In this document: piece after piece, positions 3,157-58,254 of the stretch
How the letters are laid out: the number at the start of each line of letters is the position of its first letter
Numbering within the stretch: the first letter of the stretch is position 1
Notes under the pieces: generated by a model
Database searches by the model: none
Seen by the model: the letters and a program-made list of their open reading frames with translations, nothing else
Told to the model about the DNA's origin: nothing
Assembly (NCBI GenBank): GCA_900617105.1
Contig: UYFQ01000055.1
Coordinates: forward strand, 1 to 58,254
Direction: 5' to 3'
DNA: 58,254 nucleotides
Origin: Hydrurus foetidus
Taxonomy: Eukaryota
Position numbers and translations under genes: made by a program

Positions 3157-3158
3157 TA

Positions 3159-4871: not shown

Positions 4872-5366
4872 AACTTTGACGTGATGGTTTAAGTTGGAGG
4901 AGTCGAAGACAAAAAGTCGGAAAAGAGAAAAACTTTCTCGGAGGAAACTTCGGTGAAGACCGAATATCGATATTGTGGTCTGACGGCGGGGCCTAGGACG
5001 GGAGGCGAAGTTGGAGAAGGCGGAGGACGGAAGGCGTGGGCAAACGAAGGCAAAGTCGAGAGTCGGTGGAATAGACTTGTGTTAGTATCTTACAGTTGAG
5101 TATATACAAGTGATGTGTACGCTAAGTGCATTCACGTCATATGTGGAACTAAGACCTAAAAGTGGAATCTGAGCGTAATATACCTATTGTACCTAGTTAA
5201 CCTAGACACATTGTATTCCCTTAGGAATGCAATAAGGCTACAATAGCACGAATCTCATGACTGCACACGATATGATCTGTGAATCTTCCATAGATTTTGA
5301 ATAGAGGAATCATATATGGAGTGATGTATGATATGCTACTAAATGATAGGAAGTGTTATAGTTACA

Positions 5367-12879: not shown

Positions 12880-12954
12880 TTTATAGTGATTAAACGATTG
12901 CCGTGGATTCCAGGATTCTGAATTTCCTTCCTCAACTTTCAGAACCCTGCAATC

Positions 12955-19649: not shown

Positions 19650-20262
19650 TGTCAGACCACTTGATTCTATCAAGATATGTCTGTAGTAATATAGTTGCAA
19701 ATATAGTTTCAAATATATACATGTACGTTATGCGACACGTACGTACGTAAGTACACACAGATACATAACATGCACATACATACGTACATACAGTAGTACA
19801 TAGTCACAGGTGTAGTACAACACAATGTTAGTACACGCATACGTACACACATACTACGTCTACACAGTATTACATATATAATATGTACGTATGTACAATA
19901 GCGTAGTACATAGATGTATAGCGTACTACGTAATACTGCCGATGTACGTTCTTATCATACACATGCATACGTACTCTATAATATCGCCATATAGCAGTTA
20001 GTACTCACGCATGTACGTTCATATACATATACACGCATACGTACCCTGTACTATCGCCATGTATCAGTTAGTACGAACCCTCTGACCTCACGCAAATGAA
20101 CGTTCGCCTTTCATGATTCTTCAGTATCGCCAAAACACTTCGTTACTATAAGCATTCATGCAACGTTTCAAGGCTGCTATGAACAACACATCTCGCTGAA
20201 CTTTGTCCGGTGCGTCACTGTCATGAACTGTTCGCTCATGGGCGTGGCTATCTCACTCTAAT
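19650..20262 (+). repeat. Copia-A LTR-like segment, degraded after ~19755
   Basis: Exact LTR start, then many scattered small deletions relative to the other LTR copies. Confidence 0.75.
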
Positions 20263-27023: not shown

Positions 27024-28668
27024 GCATACAAACCTTTCCATGTATTGAACATCGATTTCATCGGACCCTTCCCCGATGCCTCACACGTTCTTGTCATCAT
27101 CTGTGCTTTCACACGATGGACAGAACTCTTTGGGTGCTGATAATACGGCCAAATCGGCTACCGATTGCCTTATCCAACACTTTGGCAGATACGGTGCACC
27201 CCAAATGATCAGATCTAATCGGGGTTCACATTTTGCTATTGAATTGATCAAACAATTCCTAGTGTCAACGGATACACCCCACAACCTGACACTAGCATAC
27301 TCTAAACAAGAGAATGCTATAGTTGAACGAGTTAATGAAGAGATTAACCGGTACTTACGTTCGTTCCTGTATGATACAAACAACGTGTACCAGTATAAAA
27401 ACTGCTTACCGTTTATACAGCGCATTTTGAATTCTTCAATTCACAGCAGTACCAATGCCTCCCCAGCAAGTTTATTGTTTGGTAACCAAATCAATCTTGA
27501 TTCAGGCATACTTTCACCATTCCCACAATTACCGGATGTGGAAACTTCCGCATCGAAAGTGATCTGTGAGATGTATAACATCCAGGACACCCTGATTGCC
27601 CAAGCACAAACTGCTTTGCGCACAATGGGCGCGGCTCATATTGCCACAAGTCCACAGGATATAACGGTTTTTCCCGTAGGTTCATATGTGTTGGCTAGAT
27701 ACACCACACCCGCCCACACGTTTACACACGTTGTGGCGGGGACCGTTTCAAGTGGTATCGATCCACAACTCTGATTATACGTTGTTAGATATAACTACGA
27801 AGAAACTTAAACATCTTTATATTAGTAATCTTAAACAATTTGTTTTCAATCCGAAACATACGGATCCTGCTGATGTAGCACGCCGCGATTATATGGAATA
27901 CTTTATTGAATCCATTCTTCAGCACCAGGGCAATTCCAGACGCAAAACCCAAATGCAGTTACTAGTCAAATGGACTGACTTTGATGACTCACACAATACG
28001 TGGGAGTCGTGGAAGAATCTTCGTCTTACAGACGCTCTTCACACATATTTACGCCTTCACGGCATGTCGAAAATAATTCCGACAGAAAAGTAAGTTCCCC
28101 AGGAACGACCTACACATTATCTTTTGAAGATTCCTCCTCATTTTTACAACTTTAAGTTGCTTTTCAGGAGGTTTAGTCAGTAAAAATCTGACACAAATGT
28201 GTAGGGGAACACTTAGATACAACACATCTAGGCACTCTCGTTTCTCACTTTCCTCATCTCTCACATGTACAAATATCTGTATTTATCGTACGTATTTATT
28301 TCTGTATTTTTTTATCTTTTTTTATTATTGTCTTTTTCTTTATTTTTCTCTCACACGCTTGAGTCGTATTTGTTTTGTCACACATTGTAGCTAGAGACTC
28401 ACCAATAGAGAGAGAGGGAGAGGGAGAGAGAAATGAGAAAACGAGAGATAAGTAGGGGTAGTGTGGCTCCCTCAGGGTCTGCTACCCCATTCAGCCGATT
28501 AAATGCTGTTTCCACCGTAGTACCTTCGTGTTCACAGCCACGACTATCAGTCACTAGCTAGTTTGTGCTGCTTTGCAGAAGTTACTAGCGTACCTTCTGC
28601 TTTCCCCCTAACTAACAAGCTTCTTTTAGCCTTTAGACTTCCCTTCTCTTTCGCCCTCCAAGGTCACA
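27024..28668 (+). mobile_element. pol: Gypsy-3 chromovirus integrase-chromodomain fragment with PPT and 3' LTR 28462-28668
   Basis: IDFIGP, FGRYGAP, ERVN, YFIESILQH…VKW…TWE; GATAAGTAGGGGTAG then TGTG…CACA (207 bp). Confidence 0.88.
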
Positions 28669-31600
28669 GGTGCGTGAAAGAGCGTGGGTAGAGAGGGTGA
28701 GAGGGCTGGTGGTAATAGATCCATGCCTGCCTTGGTAAGGAACGTTTTGATGTGGGCGCCGTAGTCGAGTGTAATAGAATGGTCAGAGTGACTGGTCACG
28801 GTAATACCGCAGATAGAGGTACAGTGGTCGTTGAAGGTTATTGGGCCGTAACGCTTTTTGAGGAGTGTCTTGTATTCGGTTAGAAGTGAGGGTGACGTTG
28901 AGAGGTAGAAGCCGTCGTCTACGTGTAGGTTGATTGTGAGTGAGTTGAGCGGGTTGATGGCGCAGACCTTGCGGTAAGTGTGGTGGTCGGAGTTGGTCGG
29001 GTGGAATCCAGCAGCGATGTGAAGTGCAGTGAGCTCTGTATCGAAAACGTGATTGGATTGTTTGAGGCCGTAACAGGCACCGATGATTCCGGCTGTTTTG
29101 CCAGCGAGAGTGCGATCTGGGAGGTCTTTGGGTAGGATGGTTAGGAGTTGATAACCGCCAGTATGCGAGCGAGGGAGGGAGCTCTGGAGGAAGGCGGCGG
29201 TCATGTCGTATGACCCGATGATTAGTTGAGGGAGGATGTTCCGGTGGGCGGCGTCGGCTAGGGTGACGGCGACAATGAATGAACGGTTTGTGACGTCGGA
29301 TGTGCCTGCAAAAGTGTTGGTGTAGGGGTCCGAGGGCTGGTGGGAGCCATCGATGGCGAGGCGGGCAGTGACGAAGCGGGATTCTTTTTGTTTGATAAAC
29401 ATGGAGCTGCGGAGGAAGGCGTGTCGAGCCTCTAAGGCATCTTGTGAGTGGAGGAGGCGAAGACTAGCGTATTTGGTGAATTGTTTGTGTGTTTCTTTGT
29501 CTATTGCTGCGGCAACGTTGGGTGCGGGTAAAGTACGAGATGCGCGGGCGATGGACATTTCTGTACGCTGAGTGGCTGTTGGGGTAGGGATAAGGGAGAT
29601 GGGGAGGTTGTTGAGGGAAGAGGGGTGCTAGGCATTGAAGAGTCTGTTGCGCAGAGCAGCTGTGCGAGTGTTTGCGAGTTTGGTGATTTGGGATTGGGGG
29701 TGCGCGATCAGACTAGAACCGTACCAGTGACCGGGGGGTAGGGGGTTAGCAGCAATACGAACGGATTTTCTGGGAGCTTGCTGTTGTGATGGCGATGGCG
29801 GAGGAGGTGGGGAGTTTGGGGGTGTAGTGGGAGTGGGGGTAGGCTGGGCGTAGATGGGTCTGAAGTGAAGGTGGGTGGCTTGGTGTGTGTTGGTGGTGGC
29901 GGTGGTGGAGGAGTGGGTGTGGCCGATGGCAGGAGGTATGTTGGCGGAGGGGCAATGGGACGGGGAGGCTGGGGGGTTGAAGGTTGGTTGGAGTGGGGAA
30001 GGTATGGATGGAATCAAGGAAGGTGACGGGATAAAGGCTGATCGGTGGTGATGCGGTGGGAGTTTGGGAGTTGAGGTGGATGGTTTGTGGTGGACCTGAT
30101 GGGTGGGAGGATAAGGGGTAGGGAGGGGATGGGTGCATTTGTTGGGCGGGGGATAGTGGGCTGTGATGGTGCGGGGGACAGCGGGTCAGGGGGCAAAGGA
30201 ACATGGATCGTGTGGTCTTTGGCGGTCCAATCGAACGGGACGTAGGTGGGGGGCAAAACCAGATATGCGCGACGTGGTACAATGCGGCCGTTAGCCAGCA
30301 CAAACTGGGCGTGGCCAGTGATTGGGTTAGGGCCTAGGCAGACTCCTAGTTCGGTTTTGGGTTCGGTTGCTGCTGTAGTATTGTGCTGTCGGGCGTTTGC
30401 TTGGCGTTTGTCAATGTGCTGAACGACGAGGGCAGTAGTCCCGAAGAGTAGAGGAATGGTACGAATCTTTGTGCTACGAACGAGTTCATTGGGTGTATGG
30501 GGGTGACTCTTGGTTGAAATGAGGGAGTTGCGGGTAGCGGCTGCGGCTTGGTGGCGGTAAAGGTAAGAACGGGTAGCGAGATTGTACGGGAGGGGTGAGA
30601 GCATAGCGTTGGAGATACCCCGGATAGTTTGGATGTAGCGCTCAACGAGGTGGGCGTGGTTGCCGGGAAGGGAGTTAGAGAGATGGATGTCGAGGGAGCC
30701 GAGAGGGGTAGAGAGGGAGTTGTTAATATTTTCCGAGTCGCTGTGCATAGATGTGACTTTGTGGCCGTGGGCGTTGTAGATGGTGGTGATGACTGAATGG
30801 ATAGATTTGAAAATGTGGGTGGTGGCTTTTGAGAAAGCTCCGACTACGGAGATGTAGTCTGAGTGTTCGTCGACGATGATGACCTCGTGGCTGAATCCAC
30901 CAGGTGACGGCTGGGGCAGTTGTTGAGGATCGAACGACAAGGTCTGTCCGATGGTGGTTGTGGGTGCATAGGTTTGGGTTAGAGGGAGATCGGTATTTTC
31001 CTGCGGCGCAATGGACGCAGTGGCCGCGGAGAATTCGGTTGAGTAGGATGTCGGATGGGACGAGAGGAGTAGGAATTTTACCAGAGGAAATACAGAGGGA
31101 GAGGATGGCGTCCGAGGGATGTCCTAACGCACGGTGGAGAGCCTCGGCTTGGTTAGCTCGATGTCGCTGTTCCCCGGTTATGTGGGGGAGAACGGGAGGA
31201 AGTGAAGTGAGTAGATAAGATGTAGGAGTATTTGGAGGTTGATAGTGGGTGGGGTTGTTAAGGGCGGCGACGCGTAATGCAGTGAAATTGATTGGGAGAA
31301 GATTATTAGAGTTGATAGCGACATTGTTAAGAAGGAATCCTGTTGTTGATGAATTGATAATGCTGTGGGTAAGGGGTCGGGTGGGATCAGGGCAGTAGTG
31401 TGCCCCACATTTTTGCATGTAACATAAACTCAGAAGGGTGGTGGGGATAGTTGGGGCAAGGAATGCAGCATTCATATTTTTAGTGTTTGGTAGGTAGGTG
31501 AGGTATCCTGAGTGAGTTACTGGGCAAGATCCGCTCACGCCGCCTAACGAGAAAGGGGATAAGAGTGGTTGGATGTTATATAGGTCAGATGCGTGGGGTG

Positions 31601-31739
31601 TGACGTTGAGGCTACATCCGGTGTCCCAGAATCCTGAGTGTTTGTTTGCTGGTAGGTTAGCTAAGTACGAGAGTTGGTCAGTAGTAGGTATAGGGTCGGG
31701 TTCTGAAGGGATGGGTAGAGGGGCCGAGTCCCCTATGAC
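28669..31739 (-). pseudogene. pol: Copia-B pol (PR-IN-RT, frameshifted)
   Basis: Motifs spread over ORFs 30723-31538, 30014-30940 and 28626-29558. Confidence 0.85.
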
Positions 31740-32753
31740 CTAGGTTTCAGTTTTAAGAGTCTCCTCAAAGGCGGTGTCTGTGAGTTGCATGAGGAGGTTG
31801 ATGGAGGTGGGAGATCCAGGGGTAGCGGCTTCAGCTTGAGCGAGTAGGGATTTCATGTTGTTATAGACGGAGGGAGTGGAAGTGGGATGACGGTTAGCTG
31901 GATTAAGGCCACAGGAAAGGATAGTATGTGAACTAGTCTTGGGTTTCTTTGGGTAACGCTTATGACAGTGGATACAAAATACTGATGGTGCAGGTGTGTT
32001 TTTGTTGGGGGGAGGCTGAACGGCGAGGTATGCCGAGGCTTGGGTTGATGGGGTATCAGAGAGGTGCAAGAGGGCGCTGGATTTTTCCCAGTTTAGGAGG
32101 GTTGTGGCTAATGCAGCTGGATCCGTGAATCTAGCGTCAGGGTTGGCTGCTAAAAGGGTGTTGATTGGGAGGTTGTAGAGTCCGTTGCTAGGAATACCAG
32201 TGAGTAGAGCGAAGCAGTGAAGTTGAGCTACGGAAACCATGTCGGAGTTTGTGAGACTACCGAAATCTACTTTGAATTGTTCAAAGTCGGAAGCCATGGT
32301 TTGAATATATTCGCTCAGTGTTTTGTCGCCTTGGTGCGAGTTGAGAAGCTGTCTTGTTCGCAGGAGTTTGGTGGATGCGTTGCCTGTAGAGTGTATGGTG
32401 GTTAGTATTGTCCAGCAACTGAACGATTTGAGGCCAAGGTTAGCGGCTCTGAAGGTTGGGTAAGTTGGATGAGTTTCTAAAGCAAGATGTGATTCAGAGG
32501 ACATGTTGGAGAAGAGATAGGTGAGTAAATCATTATCATCTTTCTCGTCAATCTTTATTTGTGCGAGCGTACGCGTTATCGCGTCGCGCAACATGTTGTA
32601 TCCGAAAGGGGACAATTCGAGTTCGAGTGCTGGGGTGCCGGCTGTAACTTGGGCGGCCGTAGGTAGAAGTCTGTGAAAGACTGGAGCCCAAGTGATGGTG
32701 ACATCATTTTGTGTAGGGAGTGCCCATGATGACAGAGTTACCAATGCGGCCAT
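31740..32753 (-). CDS. gag: Copia-B gag
   Basis: ORF after the LTR; CIHC…H…C knuckle-like motif; ends in TAG in frame with protease. Confidence 0.75.
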   Translation of the reverse strand: MAALVTLSSWALPTQNDVTITWAPVFHRLLPTAAQVTAGTPALELELSPFGYNMLRDAITRTLAQIKIDEKDDNDLLTYLFSNMSSESHLALETHPTYPTFRAANLGLKSFSCWTILTTIHSTGNASTKLLRTRQLLNSHQGDKTLSEYIQTMASDFEQFKVDFGSLTNSDMVSVAQLHCFALLTGIPSNGLYNLPINTLLAANPDARFTDPAALATTLLNWEKSSALLHLSDTPSTQASAYLAVQPPPNKNTPAPSVFCIHCHKRYPKKPKTSSHTILSCGLNPANRHPTSTPSVYNNMKSLLAQAEAATPGSPTSINLLMQLTDTAFEETLKTET

Positions 32754-33095
32754 ACGATGTTTGAAGCAGCCGAAAGGTCTGCTTTTTGAAGGGTGTCCAA
32801 TTGGAAGAAGTCGAATCCAAGACGATTGTTGGCGCGCTACTTGCGGAGAAAGTAGCTAACATGGCTATAAGTAAATGTTGGGAGAAGGAGGAAATCCAGA
32901 GAACAACGGAGTATTTACTTATAAGCCTGGGTGCGCTAGAATGTGGCTAGCTATCGAGTATGGTTGAGTAGCTAGTCATTTGCTGTGCTGTGTGACACTG
33001 GAGTAACTAGTAACGCTATTATTGACCCGAGTGAATTGATGTTTTAACGGCTTGTAGTGACGTGCGTGAATATTTAAGTACATGATAATGTAACA

Positions 33096-36000
33096 ACCGG
33101 GGTCATCATCTGATCATCACAGGAGATGCCAAGAAGATCTAACCCGATATAATCACCCATACGTGATGGGTCATAAACGCAGTCTGTGCGTCAATCCAGA
33201 CTGATACCAAGCGTCCAGCACGCAGGAAGATCATCAAAACATCAGATGACAATGACTTCAAGGAGACTCCTGGAACGTCAAGCTCAATGCATGCTCCACC
33301 AATGCTTCAAGACCCTCCTCTTGTTAATGATGATATTGTTCCAGCACTTAAGACTGCTGGTGTACCTCGTATGATTGCACCAGTCCAATATCCAGTCAAG
33401 GAGGAAGAGCAGCAGCCATTGCAACTGGAGCATCCTCCCATGTCACTCGACTCTCAGCAATCTACACAAGATATTTTGCATCCTCCAATGGCAGATCTGG
33501 CAACCCCTGAGCCATATCGAATGCGCACTCCACCAGCCAAATCACCATCAAGAGATTCAGTGTCTGCCACACGTCGTGCAAAAGCAAGAGCACTGGCTGA
33601 GAAAAAGAGTCTCAACTTACTTACAGTTACAGACAAAGACAGCAAATTCATGTCATTCAAGAAGACAAGTCACAAGACAGTCATTGATAGTGGTGCATCT
33701 ACATCTGGTACTGGATTGCGCAGCAGTCTCCGTGACCTTAGACCTACATCATGCAGTGTCTCAGCGGCTTTCGGGGAGACTGCCCAGCCTACTGAGATGG
33801 GACTACTCCCACCATTCATGCTCAAGACTATTGTCATCGATCAAATGAATGATACTACACTACTCTCAGTGTCTCAAGCGTGTGCAAAGGGATTTGTGGG
33901 CATCTTCACCTCTAAGGACTGCAAGTTCTTTAATGCGATAGATGTCATCCCACACCTTCAGACAATTTCAAAGACAGCTCACCCAGTTATGAGTGGCAAG
34001 GTAGAGGAAGGCCTCTACTTGCTGGACTCCAACTGAGTGCAACCGGCTCAACTCTTGGTCACGAGTGTAAAGGAGCTTTCGATTTACGACCACGTGCATC
34101 GCGTACTAGGACACCCTGGCGAAGAGGGTATGGCCTGGCACCGACAGCACACCATTGGAGCACACTACTCCAACTTGGATGCATCTACACCAAGGCCAAT
34201 ATGCGCAGCATGCGTACAGGGCACGATGCGACAGACCTCTACGGACCATCTTCGTATACACCGTTTGCCATCTCCTTGCTACGGCAGTCGATTCTCACTT
34301 GACGCGTATACACATACACACCGGTCACAGGCCGGTTATAAGTACTGCGATATCATCACGGACTTATCTACAAGACGAAGTTATCCATGCTTCAGGAAAG
34401 ACCGGGGAGCTGCAGAACTTGTCAAAAGCTTCTCCACCCTCTTTCAATCACATCCTGAGTGGAAGCCCTCGCTTCCAGGCGTAGACCGATTCATCAGAGC
34501 CGATGCAGAGAAATCCTATCGGTCAGCTGAATTCCTTCAATGCCTTCACAACTTCGGATATCGACTTGAGCCAACACCACCTCGCGACAAACATGCAAAT
34601 GGAATCGCAGAACGTGCAGTAGGCGTCTTATCGATGAAGTGCAACATCACCATGCAACCTTTAGGGATGACAGTACCACAGAAGTTCTGGGATCTTGCCT
34701 TTGAGTATACATGCATCACCCATGCATTCAATTACCATTCAGCAATCAAGACATCACCGTATCATCTCATCACTGGAAAGCATGTAATCCTCAAGAACCT
34801 CAAGGCCTTTTGGAGCTTATGTTGGGTTCACATCGCGCTTGAAGATAGGAAAGGAAAAATCGGTTTTCCTCGTGCATACAAAGCCAGATTCGTTGGTTAC
34901 GATTTATCGAGAACGCTCGAGCCTTGTTTTAAGGTCATCGAAATACTACCAACCGGAATCTTCGGCAAAATTAGGACAAGTAAGGACGTCATTTTCGACA
35001 AAGACAATAATTATAATTACACGGACGAGTACCCATCCGATCTTGACTTTTCTAATTTACACCAGAATATCAATAACGATATCTCTGCAGTCCTACCAGC
35101 TAACAAGGTAGTTGAAAAAGATTCTGAACAACAACTAGCAACTCCAGCTATTCCAATACACCCTGTACCTGTAATACCTTGCATTATTCAGAATCGAACT
35201 CCTGAAAATCCTATTCCAGCGAAAATACATCCAAATGTGATTAACAATAACAAAATTGTTAATAAATCTGGATCGACTAATATCAAATCAACAAAACAGA
35301 ATATACCGTTTGATCCAACACCAATTAGAGATACAAATAACAAATCCGACATCGATGATAATGACATTGGTATTAATACACCGATTCAAAACATTGAAAA
35401 TGACGATGCTGTCTACTGGTACTCTACTCATGTTAGAAATCACGAACATTTTCTCTCATTGATTGAAGCAAGTCATCACGAAAAACTCTTCATCAATTTC
35501 GATCAACTCAATGTGCCAAAATCATTCTGGAAAGCTATGGCTATACCTGAATGGAAAAACGCAATAGATACTGAATTAAAGAAATTCGAGAAGAACTCAT
35601 GTTTACATGTAGTACCATACATTGACCAACACCTGGTACCAATGATGTGGCTTTTTAGTATAAAAACCGACGGTACGAAAAAGGCCCGTTTAGTGGGACG
35701 GGGAGATATGATGATACCACTCGTGGACTTCGACCCCGACGCCGTATACTGCGGAAATGTATCATCGTGTTCCATCAAGATGGCACTAAGCATTGCAGCA
35801 GCATATGGACTAGTAATGAAAGGAGGTGACCTCATTGGTGCTTACCTCATTACAAGAGCAAATGTTAACTTCCCGGTGCACATAAAGACACCGCAGGGAT
35901 ACACTTGCCCACCCGGTTTCTGCTTTCAGGCTGTCGGCAATCTTTATGGATTCCCACCTGCAGGGCAAAACTTTTCCATAGAGTTTGATATTTGTATCTT

Positions 36001-38156
36001 CGAGTGTGGTTACAAAAACACACCCTGGGACCTCAAGTTCTTCTTTAAATGGACCACAGATGGTAGACCCATGCTTATCATCGCTCACAGTGATGACTTC
36101 AGATGGTTTGGTCCCTCGGACAAACTTGATGAATGGGATCTGATCATCGCCACCTTCAATGCACACAAGTATGAAGTCACTGATGCAACTGACAAGGAGT
36201 TCGTTGGTATTCGTATTCAGCGTGATGAAGATGGCACATATTATATGGATCAACATCGCATGATTGATTCAATAATAAAAGAGGCTAATATATCTGGTGC
36301 GAAGGACATGCACTTACCATACCCGACTGGGGACCAAGAACCTGCATTGTCAAAACTAGACAACGCTTCTACCCCTGAGGAACGTATGCAGTGTATGAAG
36401 TACCCGTACAGGAGGGTCGTGGGTCAACTAATGTACGGTATGGTACATACCATGGTCGGCATTCTGTATGCACTCAATGTACTATCCCGTTATGGTAACA
36501 ACCCAGGTCCCAGACATATCAAATTCCTCAAACACTTATTGCAGTACTGCAAGTACGCACGAAGTGATCGACTAGTGTTCCATGGACACGATGGACCCAG
36601 AGACATCGAGACTATGACAACGCTACTCAACTCCGGTTTCAATGCGATGCAGATTTGGGTGGTAATCCCGACAATAGCCACTCCCAGACTGCATACCTTG
36701 GATACCTCGGCCGTAACCTTATCTGCTGGTGTTCCACCGACCAAGGCAGCATATCAACATCAACGGCAGAGTCGGAAATCAAGGCTGTCAACCACACACT
36801 CAAAGCAGAGGTCATAGCCAACAGAGGCATCCTAAACATGATGGGATGGGTCCAAGGTCCAACCTCTATTGAAGAAGACAACCAAGCCTGTATATACCAT
36901 TCTAAGGCAGCACACATGACACGCAACCTACGGCACCTCGACCTCACCGAAAACTGGGTCAAAGAGAAGGTTGCTGATGGTACTTGCGTAGTTGTTAAAG
37001 TTAAATCGTGCGATAATAATTCAGATATTGGTACAAAAAGAGTTTCTCTACCAATATTTAATAAACTTCTAAATCAAATTATAGATCAGTCTCAGAGACG
37101 AAATCTTTAAATAGCACTATACTAATTATGTTTTAATATTGTATTTGTCTTGATCACACATATACTATGTTAATTCTAATATTATAAAGGTAGCTCATAA
37201 GTAAACATGCATTATTTTACACTACATCTTCACTACGGGGAGTGTCAGACCACTTGATTCTATCAAGATATGTCTGTAGTAATATAGTTGCAAATATAGT
37301 TTCAAATATATACATGTACGTTATGCGACACGTACGCACGTAAGTACACATGCAGATATGATAACATGCACACGTACACACGTACTTACACATGTTAGTG
37401 CATACTCATTTATGCATACATACACACATGTACTTACACTTGTACGTACATAGTCAATATGTACGTACGTACGTACGCACGCATATAGCATAGCGTACAC
37501 TTGTATGGTCACGCACACACGTATATACGTACGTGCACATGTTAGTACAAATTATTATATGCATACGTACACACACGTACTTACACATGTATGTACATAT
37601 ATAATATGTACGTATGTACGATCGCCAATAGCGTAGTACATAGATGTATAGGCGTACATACGTAAGTACCACTGTACTTACGCATGTACGTTCTTATACA
37701 TACACATGCATACGTACTCCTATAATATCGCCATATAGCAGTTAGTACTCACGCATGTACGTTCATATACATATACACGCATACGTACCCCTGTACTATC
37801 GCCATGTATCAGTTAGTACGAACCCTCTGACCTCACGCAAATGAACGTTCGCCTTTCATGATTCTTCAGTATCGCCAAAAACACTTCGTTACTATAAGCA
37901 TTCATGCAGCGTTCCTCAAGCACATGCTATGAACAACACATCTCGCTGTGAACTTTGTCTCAAGGTAGTTTCACTGTCATGAACTGTTCTGATAGCTCTT
38001 TTGCGTGGCTATCTGTAAACTCTAATCAGAATTTAATACGTTGTACTTCACAGCTTCGTCTACTCGATAGCTCACTGAATTGAGACAGTAGCCTGCAGCT
38101 GCTTCTCCACCTTCGCTGCGAACGCTAGAAGGTGACATCTTGTATTTAGTCTTACA
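33096..38156 (+). mobile_element. Copia-A copy 3 (5'-truncated; 1-bp deletion near 36626 in RNase H; 3' LTR 37243-38156)
   Basis: Near-identical to copy 2 from 15501 onward; TGA at 34034-34036 retained. Confidence 0.95.
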
Positions 38157-44240: not shown

Positions 44241-44955
44241 TGTGAGTCAGACTGTGGAGTGAAGCGAGCTACCTGTTGGCTGCGGAAGCGCAAAGGAAAG
44301 ACTGGCTGATGGAAGTGGTCTCGGAAGACGTGTTTACTTACAACGATCAAGTAGTAAAACAACTGGCGATGATATCAGAGAAGACAACCATCAAAGAAGC
44401 AGAGCAAAGCATCCATTGTGCATGAAATGGTGATCGCCGAAGTGGAAACATATTCAGCGAATATTCAAGTTGGCGATTGAGCAATGGGCGGAACCCTCGC
44501 TGCTCATGAAATCGGATGCTTGGTGGAAACCGGATACCTGGTGGAAATCCGGATGCTTGGTGGTGAAAAACCGGATGCTTGGTGATGGCCCCGAAGGGGG
44601 ATATCGCTAGAAGAACGATGAGCGTATGTACACAACAGTGTATGGCGGTGTTTTGGGTGAGGAAGCGCTACACTACTTGTGACATGTGAATGCTAATCTA
44701 CAGATGAAACTATGCTAACAGATCATGCATGAATATGCTGGACTGACACTCCCCGTAGTGAAGATGTAGCTGAACGTGTTATTGAGAGTATCGAAATGAA
44801 TGATATGTGTATATATACTCCCCGTACTGAGGATGTACTCCCCGTACGAGAGATTTGGCAAAAAGTGTAAAAAGTTAGTTATAATATATGCGTGCACTCA
44901 TATAAGATAGTAAAATTAGTACGTATGTTAGAAATATGGATATTAAGTATTTATG

Positions 44956-47825
44956 TTATTTAATATTAGTTCGTAAAGACTTGTCAACGAGCCTGTGCGT
45001 TAGGTATTCGAAAAGTGGTAGTGGAACTCTTTTCGTACCTATGTCTGAGTTGTTTTCGCCCGAAGGGATTTTAACAATGACACAGGTACCATCGGCGACT
45101 TTGTCCTTAAAGTAGTTTTCGCTCAGGTCAATGTGACGAAGGTTCTTGGTCATGTGTGTATGATTTGAAGCATCAACACAAGCAGAATTGTCTTCTTCGA
45201 TGACTGTAGGAGCTTGTGTCCATCCCATGTGGTTTAGTATGCCCCGGAGGGGAATGACATCGGATTTTAGTGCGTGATTAACTGCCTTGATTTCGGATTC
45301 TGCAGTTGATGATGAGATGCTGCCTTGGTCGGTACTCTTCCAGCAGATGACATTGTCGGCGAGGTAGCCAATGTAGGAGGTCTGGGAGTGACGGTTGTCT
45401 TTGTTACCGGCGAGGTCGGCGTCGCATTGGAACTTCAACTGCAGTAGACTGGTCATCGTAGCGATGTCGGTGGGACCGTCGTGTGTGGTGAATTTCAGTC
45501 TATCCATCTTGGCGTACTTGACATATCGAAGTAAGTGCTTAAGGAACTTGATGTGTCGTGCACCTGGACTGTTACTATATCTGGATAGTATGTTGAGAGC
45601 GTACATGATTGTAATCAATGTGTGTACCATTCCGTACATAAGTTGACCAACTACCCGTCGGTAGGGATACTTATTATACATGTGCCTATCGAGATCGGTA
45701 GAGTTGTCCGCCTTGGACAGACTCTCACCAGAAGGTGGATATGGTAGATGCTCATCGGCGGCGCCAGCAAGGTTGGCCTCCGATACGATGGATGTGATCA
45801 TGCGTGACTGATCCATGTAGTAGTTGAAGTTTTCATCGCATGTAATGCGGATGCCGACGAACTCTTTGGAGGTCGCGTCGGTGACTTCATACTTGTGGGA
45901 GTTGAATGTAGCGATGAGGAGATCCCATTCGCTAATGAGTGCAAGTGGTCCGAACCATCTGAAGTCGTCTGAGTGTGCTATCAGTATCAGGGGTTGACCT
46001 TGGACCCACTTAAAGAAGAACTTTAAGTCCCACGGTGTGTTTTCGTATCCACATTCGCGTACACATTTGTCGAATTCCTTTGAGAAATTCTGGCCTGCTG
46101 GTGGAAAACCGTAGAGGTTGCCAATGGCTTGAAAGCATGTGCCAAAAGGTGTGGTGTAACCTTGAGGTGTCTTGATGTGAACGGGAAAGTCGGGGTTAGC
46201 GAGTGTGATTAAGTAGGCGCCTACTAAATCTCCTCCCCGCATGGATAATTTGTAGGTTGCGGCTATGACGAGTGCAATCTTGATCGATGACGCATTGACA
46301 TTACCGCAGTATACTGCGTAGGGGTCGAAGTCGACCCAGGGTATCATGAGATCACCACGACCTACGAGGCGGGCCTTCTTGGTGCCGTCAGTCTTGATAC
46401 TGAAGAGCCACATCATTGGTACGAGGTGCTGGCCGGTGAAGGGGACAGACCGGAAGCAGTTGTTGACTTCAAACTTAGTGCGCTCAGTGTTGATGGCCTG
46501 TTCCCACTCTGGGTACTGCATTGCGGTCCAGAAGTCTTTGGGGATGTAGGGATCCTTGATTTGGACTGCTATGTTGTAGTGCAGGACACGGAAGAGGTGA
46601 ACAGGGAAGCATGTGGAAGAACTGGTGTAGGTGGACCAGTATATCATGTCATCGTTGACTGAGTGCTCTGTCTCAGGACAGGGGTTATATAGTCGGGGTC
46701 GATAAGGGGTGCAGGTGAGGGGAGGCCGGGTAGGTCGACTCGCTCAGGCACCACAATAGGGTCATTATCATTATCAGTATAGTAGAGGGACGGGATGAGG
46801 GCGAAGGCCTCGTCGGTAGGGAAGTGTGCATCTGAGTCATGCTTGAAGTTGTTGTGCATGTCGAAGATGACATCCTTACTGACTCGAACAGTACCGTAGG
46901 TGTTCTTGGGTAGTATTTCTAATACTAAATATTGTGGTACTAGTATAGATGTAAAACTATAACCAACGAACCGAGCACGGTAGGCACGAGGTGACCCAAC
47001 TTTACTTTTCTGATCTTTGGGTGCGTGCTTGACATAGCAGGGTGCCCAGAATGGTCGAAGCATCCTGATGTCCACGTGTTGCCCAGAAGTGAAGTGATAC
47101 GGAGAAGTACCAATACGCTTGTTAAGGTTAAAGGAATGAGTAACACATGCATAGGACATTGCAAGGTCCCAGAACTTCATTGGCACATGCGGAACAGGGG
47201 TTATCATGGCAACGTTGGTCTTGAGAGCTACAATGCCGACTGCTCGCTCAGCGATGCCGTTGGCATGTTTGTCACGAGGTGCAGTGTGCTCAAGTCGGTA
47301 TCGGTATCGGGCGCAAAGCGCAGTAAATTCTTCAGATCGGTAGTTGGCCTCTGGGTCATGCCGGATGAAGCGATCAACCCCAGGGGTATTGTGGTTCCAT
47401 TGGGGGGTTAGGTCGAAGAAGGCTGCAATGCGGGCACAGAGTTCAGAGGCGGACCGGTCTTTTGTATATACAGGATAGTATTGTCCCGACGCGAGGTCGG
47501 TGAGGATGTGAGTGTAACGGTAGTTACGGAATGATGGAGTCGAGTGGGTATAGGCATCCAAGGAGAACTGCTGGCCGACGAGGGTAGTTGTGTCTCTGTG
47601 AATGCGACGATAGTCTGTGGATGCTTGACGCATTGCGCCATGGGCGCATCCAGGACAGACCGGACGGGAGGTGTGTGCATCTTTGGTGGTGAAGCGAGCA
47701 TTGAGGGAATGATCGCGGTGCCATGCCATGCCTGGAAGACCGGGGTGGCCTGTGGCTTGATGCACGTGGTCGTACAGTGAAGCGGGAGTATAGTGTGTGA
47801 CCAAAAGACTCTCCCGAGTGGTTGG
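44956..47825 (-). pseudogene. pol: Copia-C IN-RT-RH (frameshift near 46647)
   Basis: YDHVHQATGH…CPGC, AERAV, KKARLVGRG, HSDD, CDADL; clearly homologous to Copia-A pol. Confidence 0.92.
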
Positions 47826-50800
47826 TCAGTAGGGAGTCTCCACGTAGAGGCCGTCTTGGACGGTTCCACGGGTGACCTCCTTTCCATGCTGAGCTACCAG
47901 TGCAATGTAGGGAAGGGCTGATGCAGTCTCATAGAAGCGGAAGTCTTTATGAGTGAAGATGCCGATGAAGTGGTCGTTGGTGACACCGCCAGCGCAGAAC
48001 TGGGAGACAGAGACAAGGGTGCTGTCGCCTAGTGCAGGGAGAAGGAGGGTGCTAAGCTCCAACGGTCCGAGGCTGCCTTGGTGTGTTGGTGTCATGGACG
48101 GACCGAATGCAGGGGTGACTGTGACGGATGTGCTGACAGGTTCAATGCTGGTAAGACGTTGGGAGCGGCCGGTGCCAGAGCGTGAAGCACCAGAGTCGAA
48201 GATGACCTTGTCGGGGACGTGGAACGAGTTGAGTCTCTCATGTTGGGACTTGACGACGAATGTGTTGAGCTTGGAGTCGGAGGTACCGCCGGATGGTGCA
48301 GGAGGGCGAGCTGATGCAAGCGGAGGGCGAGTACTGTTGAAGGCATGTCGGACATTTGTCGAGCGTTGAGATCCGACTGGTGGAGTCATTCGGTGGCGCT
48401 GGGCACGAGGCATAGTGAAAGGCGAGTCGGATGCAAGTGGTTGCGCGGCTTGCCAACGTTTGAGTGACCCGGTAAGAGGGTCAGAGGGTGTCGATGGAAC
48501 AGGTGGTAACGGAGTATTGAACTCCGGAAGCGTAGTGGGAATCGATGTTGAAGGTGAGGCGGAAGAGGATGCTGACGAGGACGAGGTAGTGTCTTGACGC
48601 TTAGTGTCCCCTTGAGCCTGGTCTTTCTGGAATGCGATGCCGCGCTTCCTGGCGTTGTACCGCTGAAGTTCCATGGATGCGTCCGGTGGTACCCATGGGG
48701 ATGCGTCTGATGGAGGGACCATGAGACGTGTGACGGCTCCATGTAGGTAGTTGACATAAGAGAGGGCGCATCGAGGGCCACTGATGTTATGTGTTGGACA
48801 GGACATGTTGTACGGGAGGAAACAGATGGAGTCTTCGACAGAGGACTCTGAATCGCTCTCATAGTTCCGCAAAGTGTATCTTTGGCGTATGTTCTGTGGG
48901 GCTGTAGATGCTGCGAGGTCCCTGGCGAGAGATACTGTGCGGTAGTGTGACTCGGTGGGTTCAACAGGATCGGGTCCGACGAAGAGGCTGTTGGGTGTAA
49001 CATGAAATGCATCGGGTAGGACATGCTGGATTACGACTCGAATAGCTTGGATGAATGACTCGTTCGATCCAGTTCGTGTCATAAGACCGTCAACGTGCGC
49101 ATCAACTTCCGTGAGCATGAGTATGCGAAGAGTGGGAATGTTGTGCCAGGAGTTGCCGGGTGCATTGGCATATCGGGCAAGCTGTGCTGCGACCCAGGAG
49201 GCACAGTCGTAGATGAGGACACTTTCAAATATCGCCATGTGGTCTGGACTGATCTGGTCGTCGAGGTACAGAGCAGTGTGGACGAGGAAGTAAAAGAAAA
49301 TGTTCCCGACTGTGGACTGATAGGTGGTGATGTCTTCAATCAAGGTTGGATTGAAGGTGCGGTAGTGCCCTGGGTCATACTCAAGATTGGGTGGAGTCGG
49401 CGGCTCAGTGTTGGCGAGCAGCAGGTTGCGAGCAATCTTGTGGATGAGGTTCATATACCGAGAGTATCCGTCTCTGACATCAGCGCGGCAGTTGCTGAGG
49501 GTGGTTGGGGATACCCAGCCGAAAATAGCGAGGTATATATGAGGCGCCGGTGTAGGGGATCCAGGCAAGGCGGGACGGTTCACATAGATGATGAAGTCAT
49601 TTGCTGAGAGGGGCTGCTGATGAATGCGGTGGTGGACCACAGTGTAGTACTGAAGGATGTACGTGGAGCATTGTCGGCAGATACCCTGGAAGACAGTGGA
49701 GGAGGTGACTTCGTCATTGGTGAGGAAGGCCCAGGTACGTGTGAAGGCATCGACTTCTTCTTGCATTGGGGTCCCATATGTTGGCGAGGAGATGTTCTGA
49801 TGGCGCGGCGTGTCCCATGCTGTAGCATTCTCTGGGGCGACAGGAGTCGGGGGTACCCAGGAGTACTGGGGTAGATGCTGGTTGAGTATGTTCGGAACGT
49901 ACGTACGGTCGGAGCATTAAGGGAGAGGCGGCATTAGAAGATGGACGAGTTGGAGATCGCAGTGGTGAGTGTCCTGATGGAGGGAGTCCTGGCGGAAGTG
50001 CTAACTCGAGAGGAGGATTAGACGGTGTATCCGGAGGAGGTGCTGGGTCAGTGTCGGTGACTCGGAACATGTTGAGGGAGAAGCGCACATACCCGGAGGG
50101 TTCGGCGTTATCCAAAAGCGTGTTGTTCTGCCATCCGTCCTCAGGGTTGATGTTGGGTCCGTTGGTAAGAAGCTTCATGGGGATGTTGCTCTTGAGGTAA
50201 GGGACGCGGCCATCGATACTCGTCACTGGGAAGGTCTGCTTGGGAGGGTACTTGCCCTTGGCTTTGATCCGGTTCTTGTCCGTGACTGGAGCGGATCCAG
50301 GTGGGGCAGGAGGATGTGCTTTGCCAGAGGGAGGTGTCGCTGCCGGTGGCTTAGCAGGAGCATGATAGTACTTGCACTTGTTACCGAGAAGGCAGGTACC
50401 AGCGAGGAACTTGCGGCAGGCTTCAGGGGTAGTGGACAAGGCAGCTATCTTGACCGGCTTGTCTTGTAGGAGGGCATACTCGGAATAGACAACAGCTCTC
50501 TCCAAAGTTTGGTGATAGGTGAGCATGTTGCTATGGCAGGACATAAAGTAGGATTTGGTGTTGGGGCGGTGGTCGTTCATGAAGGCGTTGTGAAGGAATT
50601 GAAGGCGCTCCTGCTCGGTGCTCGGTCTGGCCTGGGCATACTCGAATTCTGTCATTAACGTTGTAAACCTCACTAAATCCTCTTGAAAACAAGTAGCCGT
50701 GGAGCCCTTGAAGTTTTGTAGAAGCCGCCGAAGTCGGTTGATGTCTGCTTCAGTATGTCCGTAGTAGTGCTTGTGCATACGTTTATAAATAGCGATCCCA

Positions 50801-51493
50801 TCGCGAGAGGTAAAGGAATCGGCACATAGATAGTGGGTAGACTCGCTGAAAGCGTTCAACATGACGTTGTATAAACGTTTCTTGTCGTGGGCCCATCGTG
50901 TAACATCGTCGGCAGGGTACATAATTGAAGGTGCCGTCAAGATTCTCCGACGTTGTAGGCTCCGAGTATCCTGATGGGTTGTGCCTCGTTGGGATTGGCT
51001 CGCGACGCGTGCCCATCGCCATTGGGTAGAGTCCAACGACGTGGAGCATGTTGTCGAGAGCTTTGAAGCGCTTGTTAGATCCCACAGTCGTTGTGGTGAT
51101 CTGGTTTTGCTTGATGCTATCCATTTCTGAAGAGGTCGTCAGAACGAGATCGAGTTTTAGCCGTTTGAGCTCCAAAACGGATTCCAAAGCGGCATTATAT
51201 GATAGCCCATGTTGCTGAAACTTCTGCCGAAGTTTGGCGCGGTGGCGTGGCTTCCTCTGCATGGGAGCCTCGTCGAGGTCGGTTTGGTGTCGAAGGATTT
51301 TGACGATTTGCCGTCGAGCTGGTGACCAAATTTTGAGTTTGGGCTCTTATGGCCTCGGCGACACGTTGATCGAACTCTGCGAGGGTCATGGAGAGCATGC
51401 GCGGCAGCTGGGCGCGGCTGGGAGTCTCTAGCCCAGTTGGGTCATGGTATTCCTCGTTGTTTTGGTCTGTGTTGTCGGACGATCGTAGCATCA
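47826..51493 (-). pseudogene. gag: Copia-C gag-protease (frameshifted)
   Basis: CRKFLAGTCLLGNKCKYYH, IFDSGAS, GLYVETPY-TGA. Confidence 0.85.
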
Positions 51494-52091
51494 TGGCCGA
51501 CTTGAGATATCTGTTGTGATGAGATACCGTTGATATATTGATACTATATCGATGATTGCTGAACTTTCTATGCAATCGCTACCATGTGAGTCAGACTGTG
51601 GAGTGAAGCGAGCTACCTGTTGGCTGCGGAAGCGCAAAGGAAAGACTGGCTGATGGAAGTGGTCTCGGAAGACGTGTTTACTTACAACGATCAAGTAGTA
51701 AAACAACTGGCGATGATATCAGAGAAGACAACCATCAAAGAAGCAAAGCAAAGCATCCATTGTGCATGAAATGGTGATCGCCGAAGTGGAAACATATTCA
51801 GCGAATATTCAAGTTGGCGATTGAGCAATGGGCGGAACCCTCGCTGCTCATGAAATCGGATGCTTGGTGGAAACCGGATACCTGGTGGAAATCCGGATGC
51901 TTGGTGGTGAAAAACCGGATGCTTGGTGATGGCCCCGAAGGGGATATCGCTAGAAGAACGATGAGCGTATGTACACAACAGTGTATGGCGGTGTTTTGGG
52001 TGAGGAAGCGCTACACTACTTGTGACATGTGAATGCTAATCTACAGATGAAACTATGCTAACAGATCATGCATGAATATGCTGGACTGACA

Positions 52092-53975: not shown

Positions 53976-56900
53976 TGTCAGCTTATATCAGCGATAAGTG
54001 CTATTTATAGCTGTATATAGCCGTTATAATCATCAATATGTAGCTAGGAATATCTCATACGTAAGTACATATATGCAGTTCGTAACTACATACAATGATC
54101 ACTTTAAGTCGCTTCCTCAATGCTTATCGTATCATGTATAGTGTCATTGTTGTGGGTTCATGACCGCATATTTAGTATAGATTCCAGATTTTATGGTATG
54201 AGGGTACGAGAACTTTTCCATGTGTGATGTATGGTTTGAAGTATATCTCGTCGCTCGTCAACGTAGGCTTAAATCTACGAGTTCAAATTCAAATCTAAAA
54301 TGGATGACGAATGAGATCTTATTGACTTGCGGCAGGTAGAATGATGTTCATCATGCAACGTCTTTTCAATTCGCATGTGTTTAGTTTCTAATTCTTAACG
54401 AATATTCGATACTCAACTCCCATAACTTCTTCGCCTGGTCGCTTGTGCTCTTGGCCTTCTGCGACCTCATTGATCGTCCCTGATCAACTGACATGGTAGC
54501 GATTGAAGCCTGAAGACTTCAAAGATAAGTTACCCGATTCCCCGTCCAAAATGATGCGAACAAGATCTGGCGCTGGTGGCGATTCACCCGATGCCGAAGA
54601 TGACTTCAGCGAGGAAATCACCGACGACGGCCCTCCTCCGCCGCAAAATGATATGTCCGACATGGATCCTGCTTTGGAAGAGCAGGTGCTTGAGACCAAC
54701 GTTGACGTTGTGTTTGATAGCTCTGCCTTCCAGGCAGCTGTAGATAGGGAAGTTGCCCGAGTTCTTAGGCAGAGAGAGAATGATGCGAAGGTTGATGCCC
54801 CTTATGGGACAGTCGACATTGCTCTACGGGCGGATCTGCCGTTGCGCGATCAGCCCCACTCTCGAACCCTATTACCTCGGGCGAATCCACCCATTGTGAG
54901 AATGTCCAGCGCGTATATGTCCGAGAATGTTGAACAAAGTAGCATAAGAAAAATCAATCCAATGAATAATGAGGGGGGAAACTCTGGCAAAAATTTTTCC
55001 AACCCTATGAATATTGATCGATTCAGCTACTCCAACAACAATATTTCTCAACAACGACGCGATTCTGATGCGTGGAACCAAAATTATAGTCGGCGCGAAA
55101 GTCCTAGTTGGAATAATAACAATAGTTCTCAACAACAACGCAGTCCGAATAATAACAACACATCTAATAGATCCCAGCAAGAACGTGCGGAAAATATTAG
55201 ACAGTCCTCTTCTCCTCCCAATATTCATGAGTATGAATCTGAGGAAAGCTACAATAGAAGAACGCCAAAACTTCGGCATAGATTAGTCCCTCAGACTACA
55301 TATATCAAAGTTGCGCAAGTCTTCATAAGTGAATGTGAAAAGAACAAGATAGATATGCATACCCCGACAAATTTCGTCGATTACGGGGATTACATGCTAC
55401 ATTAGCCAATGCTGATTTACTTACTCTCTTGACCGGACATCGTCCGCAACCTGTCATAGATCTTGAAGTAAATAAGTACGGTTACTCAGAAAGCCGTGTA
55501 ATTAACATACCTGTTCTTTCCAAACTGATGAGGATTCTTCATCTGTCTTCTCTACGAATAACACAACTCATTTCGAGGACGTTATGTTGAAAGAAGACGA
55601 TGCCTTTAAGTTTAAATATGATAATGAGAGATTGTATTCATTGGTATTCGCCATGTTTCATCAAAATCTTCACCATCATGTTACAATCCAAAGCGAATCC
55701 ACCCGCAATGGGATTAATGCATATCATGATATTCATCAATTTGTGTTCGGTCAGAAGCAAATCGATATTAAGTTCGCCAAACGCGCTCTTGAAAATCATA
55801 AAGTAAATATACATTCTCCCATGCGGACAGAATATTCTCGATGGGAAACCGCGTTCTCTAACCTCGAGCATGCCCAAATGCGGCGCCTAACTGAAGTTGA
55901 AAAAATATCTTGGCTATCAGATCAATTCAAAGATGATCCCAGATCCCAAATACAATCCTGCTTCGTTTCAAGTGCGTCCAGTAATGAATCTTATAGTCTG
56001 ATTATAGAGAAACTTCTCCGTACATACGATCTCATATCCGAAAATATCACATCTCGTGTTGCAAGTTTCGATACCTCCAATATGACTTCCAGTAGTACCG
56101 AGCCTCATATCCTATATCAAAATACTCTTTCAAATTCTAGTGCTCCTCCTCCAAATCTTCCTCTTCAAAACAAGTATAAACCTAATAACAATTATGACCC
56201 CAATAAGTCAGCCAGTCAAAAGAATGCCAAGACTCAACCACCAAAAGTTGACAGTCGAAATAGTGACAAAAAGAGATTAGCTGCCGGAGGCTTCTGTTTT
56301 AAGTTCAATATGGATGTGTGCCCTAAGTCGGCTCAAGAATGTAAATATAAGCATGAAATTATGCCGCAAGACTTTCGACCTCCTACACCTCCTCGTCGTG
56401 ATAATTATCCGGTATCCTCGGCCAAAACCCAACCGGCTAATCCCGTATATCCTAACCCAAGTTTCAAGTTAACTCAAATTCAACTTGATTCTGTGGGACC
56501 TATGTCTGGCAATGCTCATGGCAGATATGCTGGCGGATATTCTCAAAATCAAATTAAGAAATTAAAGACTTTGGAAGAGGTACTAAATCAAGCCACTACA
56601 CCCACTGAGCATCGTGTTCAAGCGTTCTCCAGTTGGGGCAATCCATCTCAGCCTGCATATACAACGCATGGTGAGAAAGCAAATACACTAATGAGAATTC
56701 GAATCGACCCGAATAATCAGCGTATATTAAAGACGCAACGGTTAGATAATTCTTGTCATAATAAAGATTATTCAAATAAGATTACAGAGAATGATTTAAA
56801 AAACAATCAGAGATGTTTACTTCAAAATGTAAATAATGAATACTCCGCATGCACCATCCCTCTTCGCGCTATTATTGCGTCGATACTTCTAGCCGAACAA

Positions 56901-58254
56901 TATTACGTCTTTCACAGACATGTTCCGCACTATAATAGAACTGATCCTTCAGTATCGATTACACCATTCCATTTCTTGTGGAAACGTACACGTACTATCA
57001 AAGATAATCAAGAACGTGATAATCAATATACTGACATCTTTCAATGGCATTCGAATCCTATGGCGCGTAAACGTAAAGACATACGTGATCGTACAGTCCC
57101 ATGGATGCATCTGATGTATTGTATTGCATCTACATTAATGCAATCAATAGTCATCCTTCCTTCTGCTGAAAAAGTGGCCTCATCACGGCACTTCATGACA
57201 TTCAACCCTTATGCTGCCAGCAGAGAGTACTATCTCACTTCACTTCGCATCGGACATTTCTGGTCCCAGATGACTACTGTGAGTGAATATGTTGAACTCA
57301 TTCGACGACTCGAGCAGAGTGCTCATCACAACACTGTTAATCATAACATGTTGTTCGTTGACACAGTAATACATGCTGTTATCCTTGACTTCATGGCATT
57401 TGCCGGTCAACATTTAGGTTACTATCATGATCAGTCTACACCACGCAAGGAAGATTTCCTTCGTCGTTTTCTATTCAATGATATCGAAGAACAAACAGAA
57501 CCTTCATTCTGTTATAATGGAATCAAAGCAACTTTTCATCTCATTGCCCGATTAATCAAACCCATCAAAGATCCCATCAAACGAGCTCTCTCTTCCGCAT
57601 TAACAAAAAAGTTGATGAATGTCTATCTGTTCAAGAGCGCCCTATCGATGGTACTAGCTTTCGTCCTAGAAATGAACCTCTCATTAGAGTCATTTACTCG
57701 CGCGCAGATTCTCCTAGTTTAGCAAACGAACCATCGGATCAAATGCGTCACGGGTCCCACTCAAGTCCACGTGGTTTACAACACTACGATGATGATGATA
57801 ATCTTAGGCACGATGATACAAGTAGTGGTAGTGACAGCGGTCCTGAAAGTGAGCCTAGTCCTGTTCTTTCCCCTTCACAACGTGTACACATCCCTAGCCC
57901 CATTCCCCCACCATCTCGTTCAATATATCGACCTGATCCAGTATATGAGTCTCCTGCTCTTATTGGCGAACGTCGTATCATCGACTATGATGCATATTGT
58001 CAAACGTTAACACGACTTCGGAGTGATAACGACCTCAATGATTACTTCCACAGTGACGTTGAATCTGTTGAGTTAAGTGACGATGAACAAGAAGTAATGA
58101 ATAAATGGTCCAAAAATATAAGTGATGATGACGAAAATAATCCAGAAACTCCTCAAGAACGTAATCAAAGGTATCGAAATATGTTAATAGAAACAATGTC
58201 AAAATATACAAAAAGGAAATATGATACAGTAAATAGTGCAAAAAGAGAGTCAGT
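53976..58254 (+). mobile_element. Copia-D 5' part: LTR 53976-54493, PBS 54494-54505, frameshifted gag
   Basis: TGTCAG…CTGACA LTR, TGGTAGCGATTG PBS, gag homologous to A and C. Confidence 0.85.
54551..57722 (+). pseudogene. gag: Copia-D gag with CCCH finger and extra domain
   Basis: CFKFNMDVCPKSAQECKYKH; FMTFNP; AVILDFMAF; split across ORFs 54503-55405 and 55584-57722. Confidence 0.8.

Follow-up and report, generated by a model that had tools for sequence, protein, structure and literature searches.

An in-frame UGA between protease and integrase in Ty1/copia retrotransposons with a CCCH-finger Gag: a candidate readthrough site

Tca2 (pCal) of Candida albicans belongs to Ty1/copia; its gag is separated from pol by a single in-frame UGA, ahead of the protease, that is followed by an 8-nt spacer and a predicted pseudoknot (PMC2194720). 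The gag-pol signal of murine leukemia virus (MuLV) comprises UAG-G ahead of the protease, a spacer of about 8 nt, and an H-type pseudoknot, solved by nuclear magnetic resonance, with a long stem 2 made up of G-C pairs throughout (PMC13517186). Tj1, Tosmo1-3, and Tcry1 of fission yeasts are Ty3/gypsy elements that form a clade with a conserved in-frame UGA, again ahead of the protease and in the strict context GAA-TGA-CT, and have sisters with a single open reading frame (ORF) (PMC10085805). We analyzed a stretch of Hydrurus foetidus DNA (contig UYFQ01000055.1, 58,254 nt; hereafter, the window) in which two families of Ty1/copia long terminal repeat (LTR) retrotransposons, Copia-A and Copia-C, carry a single in-frame UGA that follows the protease and precedes the integrase.

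The two families resemble Tca2 in class, in the single UGA, and in a spacer of 8–9 nt ahead of a predicted pseudoknot-like fold, and differ from it in the position of the stop. The arrangement is also similar to that of MuLV, although the stems here are predicted, have 4–6 bp, and leave 10–11 nt between them. With the fission yeast clade they share the conserved UGA and the existence of sisters without a stop, whereas the stop context varies (UGA-GUG, UGA-CCA, UGA-CUC, and UGA-GUC). Avian sarcoma-leukosis viruses, which are retroviruses, likewise encode the protease in the gag frame and at Gag level, but reach pol by −1 frameshifting with no stop. Ogre and Bianca of plants have two ORFs, which in Ogre separate GAG-PROT from RT-RH-INT; however, their spacers average 274 bp in Ogre, where the spacer is a spliced intron, and 172 bp in Bianca (PMC6317226), as compared with one codon here. 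Plant Copia elements obtain an excess of Gag via splicing (PMC5580714), and diatom elements are reported to carry at most one stop or frameshift between their gag and pol (PMC2806351). Among described readthrough motifs, type I has CAR-YYA directly after the stop, and type II combines UGA-CUA or UGA-CGG with a 3′ structure (PMC3159437). Here, too, we predict a structure 3′ of a UGA, but neither CAR-YYA nor CUA or CGG stands directly after the stop in Copia-A, Copia-C, or the contigs of relatives.

Searches of full texts without their supplements turned up no LTR retrotransposon in which one stop alone divides the protease from the integrase, and PMC5009743 contributed nothing on such an arrangement. 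The element probably works like the stop-readthrough elements, but the position of its stop places it outside the gag-stop-pol class: known retrotransposon stops lie ahead of the protease, and a stop after it would be a new layout. This would add to the known modes of Gag:Pol control in LTR retrotransposons one in which a single stop leaves the protease at capsid level and rations only the integrase and reverse transcriptase. Annotation pipelines would label such elements as broken.

The stop codon at the protease–integrase boundary

A cluster of eukaryotic mobile elements makes up the whole window; the host is presumably a freshwater protist. It contains three copies of Copia-A (7168–12117, minus strand; 12922–19518, plus strand, full length; 33167–36817, plus strand) and one of Copia-C (44241–52091, minus strand), all with the order CCCH-finger Gag, protease, one in-frame TGA, integrase, reverse transcriptase (RT), and RNase H. 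The GAG-PR-IN-RT-RH order, the RVT_2-type RT, and the two LTRs identify both families as true Ty1/copia LTR retrotransposons. In Copia-C, the TGA was read from the letters at 47826–47828 (minus), where two proteins of the same family, P0257 and P0258, also terminate; the homologous TGA lies at 10243–10245 (minus), 16441–16443 (plus), and 34034–34036 (plus) in the first, the full-length, and the third copy of Copia-A. The Copia-C stop ends a retropepsin-type protease with a DSGA motif (47829–48206, minus) and is followed in the same phase by the integrase frame (46644–47825, minus), which begins with an LLVT motif and continues with an HVH-GHPG zinc finger. In full-length Copia-A, the TGA is the sole internal stop in 2199 codons.

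Database searches with the Copia-A junction peptide returned 250 proteins, a sample that therefore leans to the kin of Copia-A. Seventy-seven of these could be mapped to the protease-terminal Gly-x-Tyr column. In 44, the C-terminus lies exactly five residues past it; in none does it fall elsewhere within 12 residues, and 33 continue. With P0257 and P0258, the stop-ending group comes to 46 database proteins, with identities down to 24%. The 45 stop-bearing proteases of the tree set formed 31 clusters at 90% and 12 at 70% identity, and the lowest pair shared 24%. In a quick LG+G4 tree (123 columns, open base; P0140, P0198, P0179 (under 95 aa), and P0171 left out), in which gain and loss of the stop are indistinguishable, one branch (SH-aLRT 99) held 40 stop-bearing rows and two with a sense codon, and Copia-C and four other stop-bearing rows lay in the open base beside stop-less lineages. 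An approximately unbiased test without P0184 and P0151 did not reject the placement of all 48 rows with a stop or a short linker in one group (p 0.45). With such close stop-less sisters, the gain or loss of a recoding site can be compared directly.

Other features accompany the stop. The last strand of the protease model comprises residues 119–122 of 125, three residues ahead of the stop, which therefore marks the end of the protease domain. Ser occupies position −2 from the stop in 44 of 45 stop-bearing proteases as against one of 27 stop-less ones. Elements with the stop keep the frame and a linker of 23–24 residues, whereas the linker of stop-less sisters ranges from 24 to about 50 residues or more, with the same hydrophobic motif ahead of the zinc finger. 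Downstream frames of 850–1040 aa with RVT_2 are common. Over the 1065 codons aligned between Copia-A and Copia-C, 588 residues with degenerate codons are identical, whereas four-fold sites come close to random (0.29); the part behind the stop is therefore under selection. The UGA is a real, conserved feature located after the protease and before the integrase.

The same data bear on whether the stop is a defect, either an assembly error or a mutation that inactivated the element, spread among non-autonomous copies. The Copia-C copy is indeed frameshifted, and stop-less sister lineages exist; against this, the stop occupies one column in the 46 proteins, downstream frames are intact, the LTRs of the Copia-C copy are 99.6% identical, and independent contigs confirm the stop. 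Conservation has already largely refuted this origin, and we give it next to no weight.

At the stop column, degenerate copies (P0198, P0162, P0253, P0140, P0240, P0254, and P0255) have Tyr, Gln, or Trp. The Tyr and Gln suggest that one subfamily may use UAG or UAA and not UGA. In P0074 and P0256, whose linker is equally short and which also have the −2 Ser, Pro takes the place of the stop and the frame stays open; they possibly represent a lineage in which the stop was lost or never gained. Every contig and copy read that retains the stop has UGA, a uniformity that would also agree with selenocysteine insertion or a changed genetic code. However, the site is a linker at which sisters lack Cys, no Rfam match at the gathering score was found in the window, and a search for a selenocysteine insertion sequence in the 3′ half of each element found none up to E 5. 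Copia-A writes all 21 of its Trp codons as TGG against one TGA, and the subfamily with Tyr and Gln would point to UAG or UAA; either form of reassignment is exceedingly improbable. No better prospect attaches to a short intron that would remove the stop as in Ogre. In Copia-C, an in-frame 33-nt GT-AG stretch with a branch-like TACTGAC motif spans the stop, whereas Copia-A lacks a GT in the interval from the conserved Gly-Leu-Tyr to the stop, run contigs show no joints across the site, and the Ogre and Bianca spacers are far longer than one codon.

We consider programmed, low-frequency readthrough of the in-frame stop at the protease–integrase boundary to be the probable explanation, judging from sequence. 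Most ribosomes would terminate at the UGA and yield much Gag-protease, and a few percent would read it via a near-cognate tRNA and yield a little Gag-PR-IN-RT-RH. The protease would then cut at the hydrophobic LLV(T/A) motif, 6–7 codons after the stop, and so set the integrase free. Predicted crossed stems 3′ of the stop may stimulate readthrough, and a hairpin that includes the UGA would be an alternative structure, built from the same strands, that the ribosome melts on arrival.

The main rival, which we regard as rather unlikely, is termination followed by reinitiation, or a separate mRNA, with integrase-RT starting at an AUG or UUG 6–9 codons downstream; the N-terminus would be nearly the same as that left by cleavage. 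The codon in this column is TTG in Copia-A and Copia-C and ATG in a relative found in sequencing run X8 (record 19), and in the sole relative that reads TCG here, an in-frame ATG follows two codons later. Gene callers begin 14 database proteins at this column, and the Tca2 junction has a weak promoter of its own (PMC2194720). On the other side, this motif also has Leu, Met, or Phe in sisters without the stop, and a cleavage site accounts for it. The frame is preserved in every readable case, which reinitiation would not require, and Pol is normally packaged by fusion to Gag. That gene callers start at the Leu column does not prove TTG to be conserved there, since at least one family has ATG.

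Predicted RNA folds around the UGA

A sequence-only reading of the window had proposed that the stop pairs within a hairpin in each family and that this hairpin, with motifs shared around it, forms a readthrough or editing element under nucleotide-level constraint. The Copia-C hairpin (47798–47828, minus) was correct in letters and coordinates and was predicted to fold as drawn, with a 7-bp stem that includes the UGA (UGACCAA, 47828–47822, with UUGGUCA, 47804–47798) and a 4-bp stem closed by a GGGA loop (ACUC(GGGA)GAGU, 47819–47808). It had an energy of −12.4 kcal/mol, a z of −2.2 relative to dinucleotide-shuffled versions of the 33-nt stretch, pair probabilities of 0.67–0.99 in contexts of 100–300 nt (p 0.001–0.006 against 1000 synonymous recodings), and first rank among 168 42-nt windows of the protease–integrase region. 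It was not the minimum free energy structure of a 71-nt stretch. The pairs drawn for Copia-A are possible, but their z was −0.16 and p 0.10–0.14, and with upstream sequence the pair probability was 0.00–0.01; the inner UGAGU/GCUCA stem reached 0.78–0.96 only if folding began at the stop. The stop pairs with different strands in Copia-A and Copia-C, and therefore the two hairpins are not one structure; a homologous stop-containing hairpin common to both families was not borne out.

The shared motifs varied across the group. GACTCC is present upstream in both families in different phases and is rare by chance (2 of 206 blocks), but the Asp-Ser that it requires in phase occurs in 12 of 45 stop-bearing proteases, and in P0258 (VESSN), a sister of Copia-C, it is impossible in either phase, ACTGA being possible. 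ACTGA is present at the stop in Copia-A and Copia-C, but needs Asn or Tyr ahead of the stop, as in only 14 of the 45. The run TTGGTCAC, about 20 nt downstream in both families, encodes an in-phase Leu-Val-Thr, is one of 50 in-phase identical runs of at least 8 nt over 3195 aligned nt of Copia-A and Copia-C, and is not kept across the group. A nucleotide-level constraint on these three motifs is thus unsupported.

Variation among relatives was read from contigs of sequencing runs aligned on Copia-A and phased by contig depth, an inferred phasing. DNA loci of relatives numbered zero in viral contigs, zero in metagenome contigs, and one, truncated, in genome contigs; of 19 genomes of the genus of that genome-contig match, one had matches, and neither locus spans a stop. 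The run contigs examined held no double-sided, compensatory change in the Copia-A hairpin, and four of its six changed paired positions break the pair. X8 record 19 (depth 4.1; peptide matching P0089, P0003, and P0064) keeps the TGA and loses two of the nine hairpin pairs, whereas X15 record 6 retains all nine via wobble.

It is rather unlikely that the stop-containing hairpin itself is the signal, whether as a readthrough element or as a switch. The hairpin is very strong in Copia-C, every family offers the stop some downstream strand to pair with, X8 record 19 gains a 5-bp register like that of Copia-C (aligned by hand), and X8 record 23 probably joins X15 record 6 in retaining all nine Copia-A pairs, part of its sequence being inferred. 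However, besides the lost pairs and the lack of compensation, the hairpin is unformed in Copia-A in context, and its partners differ between the families. Moreover, about 11–12 nt after the A-site codon lie within the ribosome entry channel (PMC13517186), so that a stem holding the UGA must melt during decoding and a stimulator must begin further 3′. Upstream of the stop, stable hairpins were predicted over the last protease codons of both Copia-C (47840–47872, minus; p 0.014 against recoding) and Copia-A (16402–16430, plus; pair probabilities 0.98–1.0; p 0.003). Both end about 10 nt ahead of the stop; the letters of their 3′ arms are identical, and the 5′ partners differ.

The spacers of known readthrough stimulators measure at least 8 nt (PMC13517186), and because of these spacers and the entry-channel footprint, folding was begun 9 nt after the stop. 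In both families, this predicted two crossed stems beginning 8–9 nt after the UGA. In Copia-A (plus), stem 1 pairs GGCUC with GAGCU (16452–16456 with 16480–16484; 8-nt spacer), stem 2 pairs UGGUC(A) with (U)GACCA (16463–16468 with 16494–16499), and a third short stem was placed by eye (16458–16461 with 16470–16473). In Copia-C (minus), stem 1, computed post hoc, pairs CGGGAG (47816–47811) with CUCCCG (47788–47783) after a 9-nt spacer and spans 47783–47816, and stem 2, in the same register as in Copia-A, pairs UGGUC (47803–47799) with GACCA (47771–47767) and spans 47767–47803. Between the families, stem 1 is wholly different in sequence with its register off by one codon, and stem 2 is identical. 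The helix score was equalled by 1.8–4% (Copia-A) and 0–0.4% (Copia-C) of 500 recodings and at 5–8% and 1.4–2.5%, respectively, of other in-frame sites; an earlier recoding null, with a minority allele and a stricter helix list, gave smaller p values, and the figures from 500 recodings are the fairer ones. Compensatory changes from A-U to G-C occur at 16458:16473 in X8 record 19 and at 16468:16494 in X15 record 6. The 3′ strand of stem 2 resembles the stop context.

On these predictions, the crossed stems are a likelier signal than the stop-containing hairpin, and if readthrough holds, its stimulator may be this pseudoknot-like fold 8–9 nt after the UGA, a proposal that we put at somewhat short of even. 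The crossed stems and the hairpins share strands and are mutually exclusive; as folds of the same strands, the hairpins may be by-products or an off state. Dozens of families, probably from a protist host, offer a natural covariation set for the readthrough signal.

Several observations weigh against readthrough through such a fold. The full DNA was read for two families, Copia-A and Copia-C, and the crossed stems, of only 4–6 bp, were found post hoc, by a search designed after folds had been seen and with a score that counts helices and ignores loop costs. Pairs are broken at 16461:16470 in X8 record 19, at 16468:16494 in the major Copia-A allele (two of the three window copies and 79% of the depth in run X3) and in Copia-C, and at 16463:16499 in a loose end of X15. 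Stem 2 is largely fixed by Leu-Val and Asp-His codons. Paired positions are not clearly poorer in variants (7 of 30) than unpaired ones (10 of 26; hand count), and near the junction Copia-A and Copia-C show no more than a mild rise in synonymous identity (9 of 13 versus 5.2 expected; z 2.2, within the top 2% of 965 windows). The stop column holds a sense residue in some copies (R, W, Y, Q, or P), the +4 base of Copia-A is G and not the leaky C, and the Tca2 junction alone, with its similar predicted pseudoknot, gave no readthrough in a Saccharomyces cerevisiae reporter (PMC2194720).

A more elaborate version is a ribosome-triggered RNA switch, in which the fold that hides the UGA would melt and refold into a MuLV-like pseudoknot that drives readthrough, aided by the −2 Ser; an undescribed group of CCCH-Gag Copia elements would then carry a valve behind the protease. 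We regard this version as speculative and unlikely. The Ser could act either as a peptide or through its nucleotides.

Variation at the stop and RNA editing

Five runs cover the stop (X14, X3, X8, X10, and X15), all as contigs; the RNA origin of X14 is a guess and the kind of X3 is unrecorded, and the RNA runs X17, X18, and X19 miss the stop. In X3, with a summed depth of about 3e5, no variant was listed at the three stop letters, while 16437, 16448, and 16452 vary at 7–9%. X14 keeps TGA, as does a loose end in X8 and X10 from the family of P0061, whose own copy has Arg. A contig of depth 2 in X15 (record 4), which may be an error, has CGA. Over window positions 16340–16570, the summed contig depth of Copia-A in X3 is about 4e5, far above that in metagenomes.

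These contigs bear on RNA editing, by which the UGA would be changed to a sense codon in some transcripts, the hairpin serving as the substrate. A paired stop would suit an editing enzyme, and Trp in five proteins and Arg in one at the stop column, together with the CGA contig, would agree with it. However, A>G at 16443 did not reach 1% in any of the five covering runs, and T>C at 16441 was absent in X3. Edited genomic RNA would be reverse-transcribed and would erode the stop, and the Trp of P0010 probably reflects a table-4 gene call, as it has a second Trp over an out-of-frame TGA. Editing is disfavored and has only a slim chance, in contigs of which none is a proven RNA library. Of the recoding proposed by the sequence-only reading, the conserved site with an unusual structure in Copia-C stands, and the editing variant finds no support.

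Other features of the elements and the window

In Copia-C, the LTRs lie at 44241–44748 (3′, minus) and 51585–52091 (5′, minus). After the 5′ LTR, both families have TGGTAGCG, which we take to be a match to initiator tRNA and hence the primer site. The RT and RNase H frame (44956–46743, minus; RVT_2, E 3e-14) is separated from the integrase frame by a frameshift. Gag with its CCCH zinc finger (49714–51138, minus) is frameshifted in the window copy, whereas P0257 of the same family has an intact Gag-protease of 1218 aa. A Pfam search gave no match on the protease of either family; the model of the Copia-A protease domain had a pLDDT of 92, and a fold search matched it to XMRV protease (probability 1.00, E 0.012). 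A second protease match, in the Atlas, carries Pol_BBD on 17% of members.

The usual Gag finger is a CCHC knuckle. The CCCH finger gave weak Pfam matches in Copia-A (about 14160–14225) and Copia-C, and that of a third Gag (55506–57722) was recognized by eye. Several hundred additional residues separate the finger from the protease, and stop-less sisters also have it. The third CCCH-type Gag frame belongs to the stretch 54500–58254 (plus), which ends at the window edge ahead of its protease.

A second, unrelated Copia with a stop, present as a single broken copy (28626–32855), has an in-frame TAG-G between gag and protease at 31740–31742 (minus). A compact predicted pseudoknot lies 5–6 nt downstream (GGGG/CCCC and UCGG/CCGA), a context like that of MuLV; it was equalled by 5% of recodings and was seen only when 4-bp stems were allowed. 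Elsewhere in the window, a hAT transposase (20262–22806, plus; Dimer_Tnp_hAT, E 6e-21) is flanked by two stretches resembling Copia-A LTRs, and an element with Gypsy order, a chromodomain integrase, and several frameshifts occupies 37–5081 (minus). Two contigs of a bacterial metagenome-assembled genome (L001-L003) carry these eukaryotic Copia proteases and are likely bin contamination. Near-identical DNA was found in biofilm, sediment, freshwater, air, and glacier runs.

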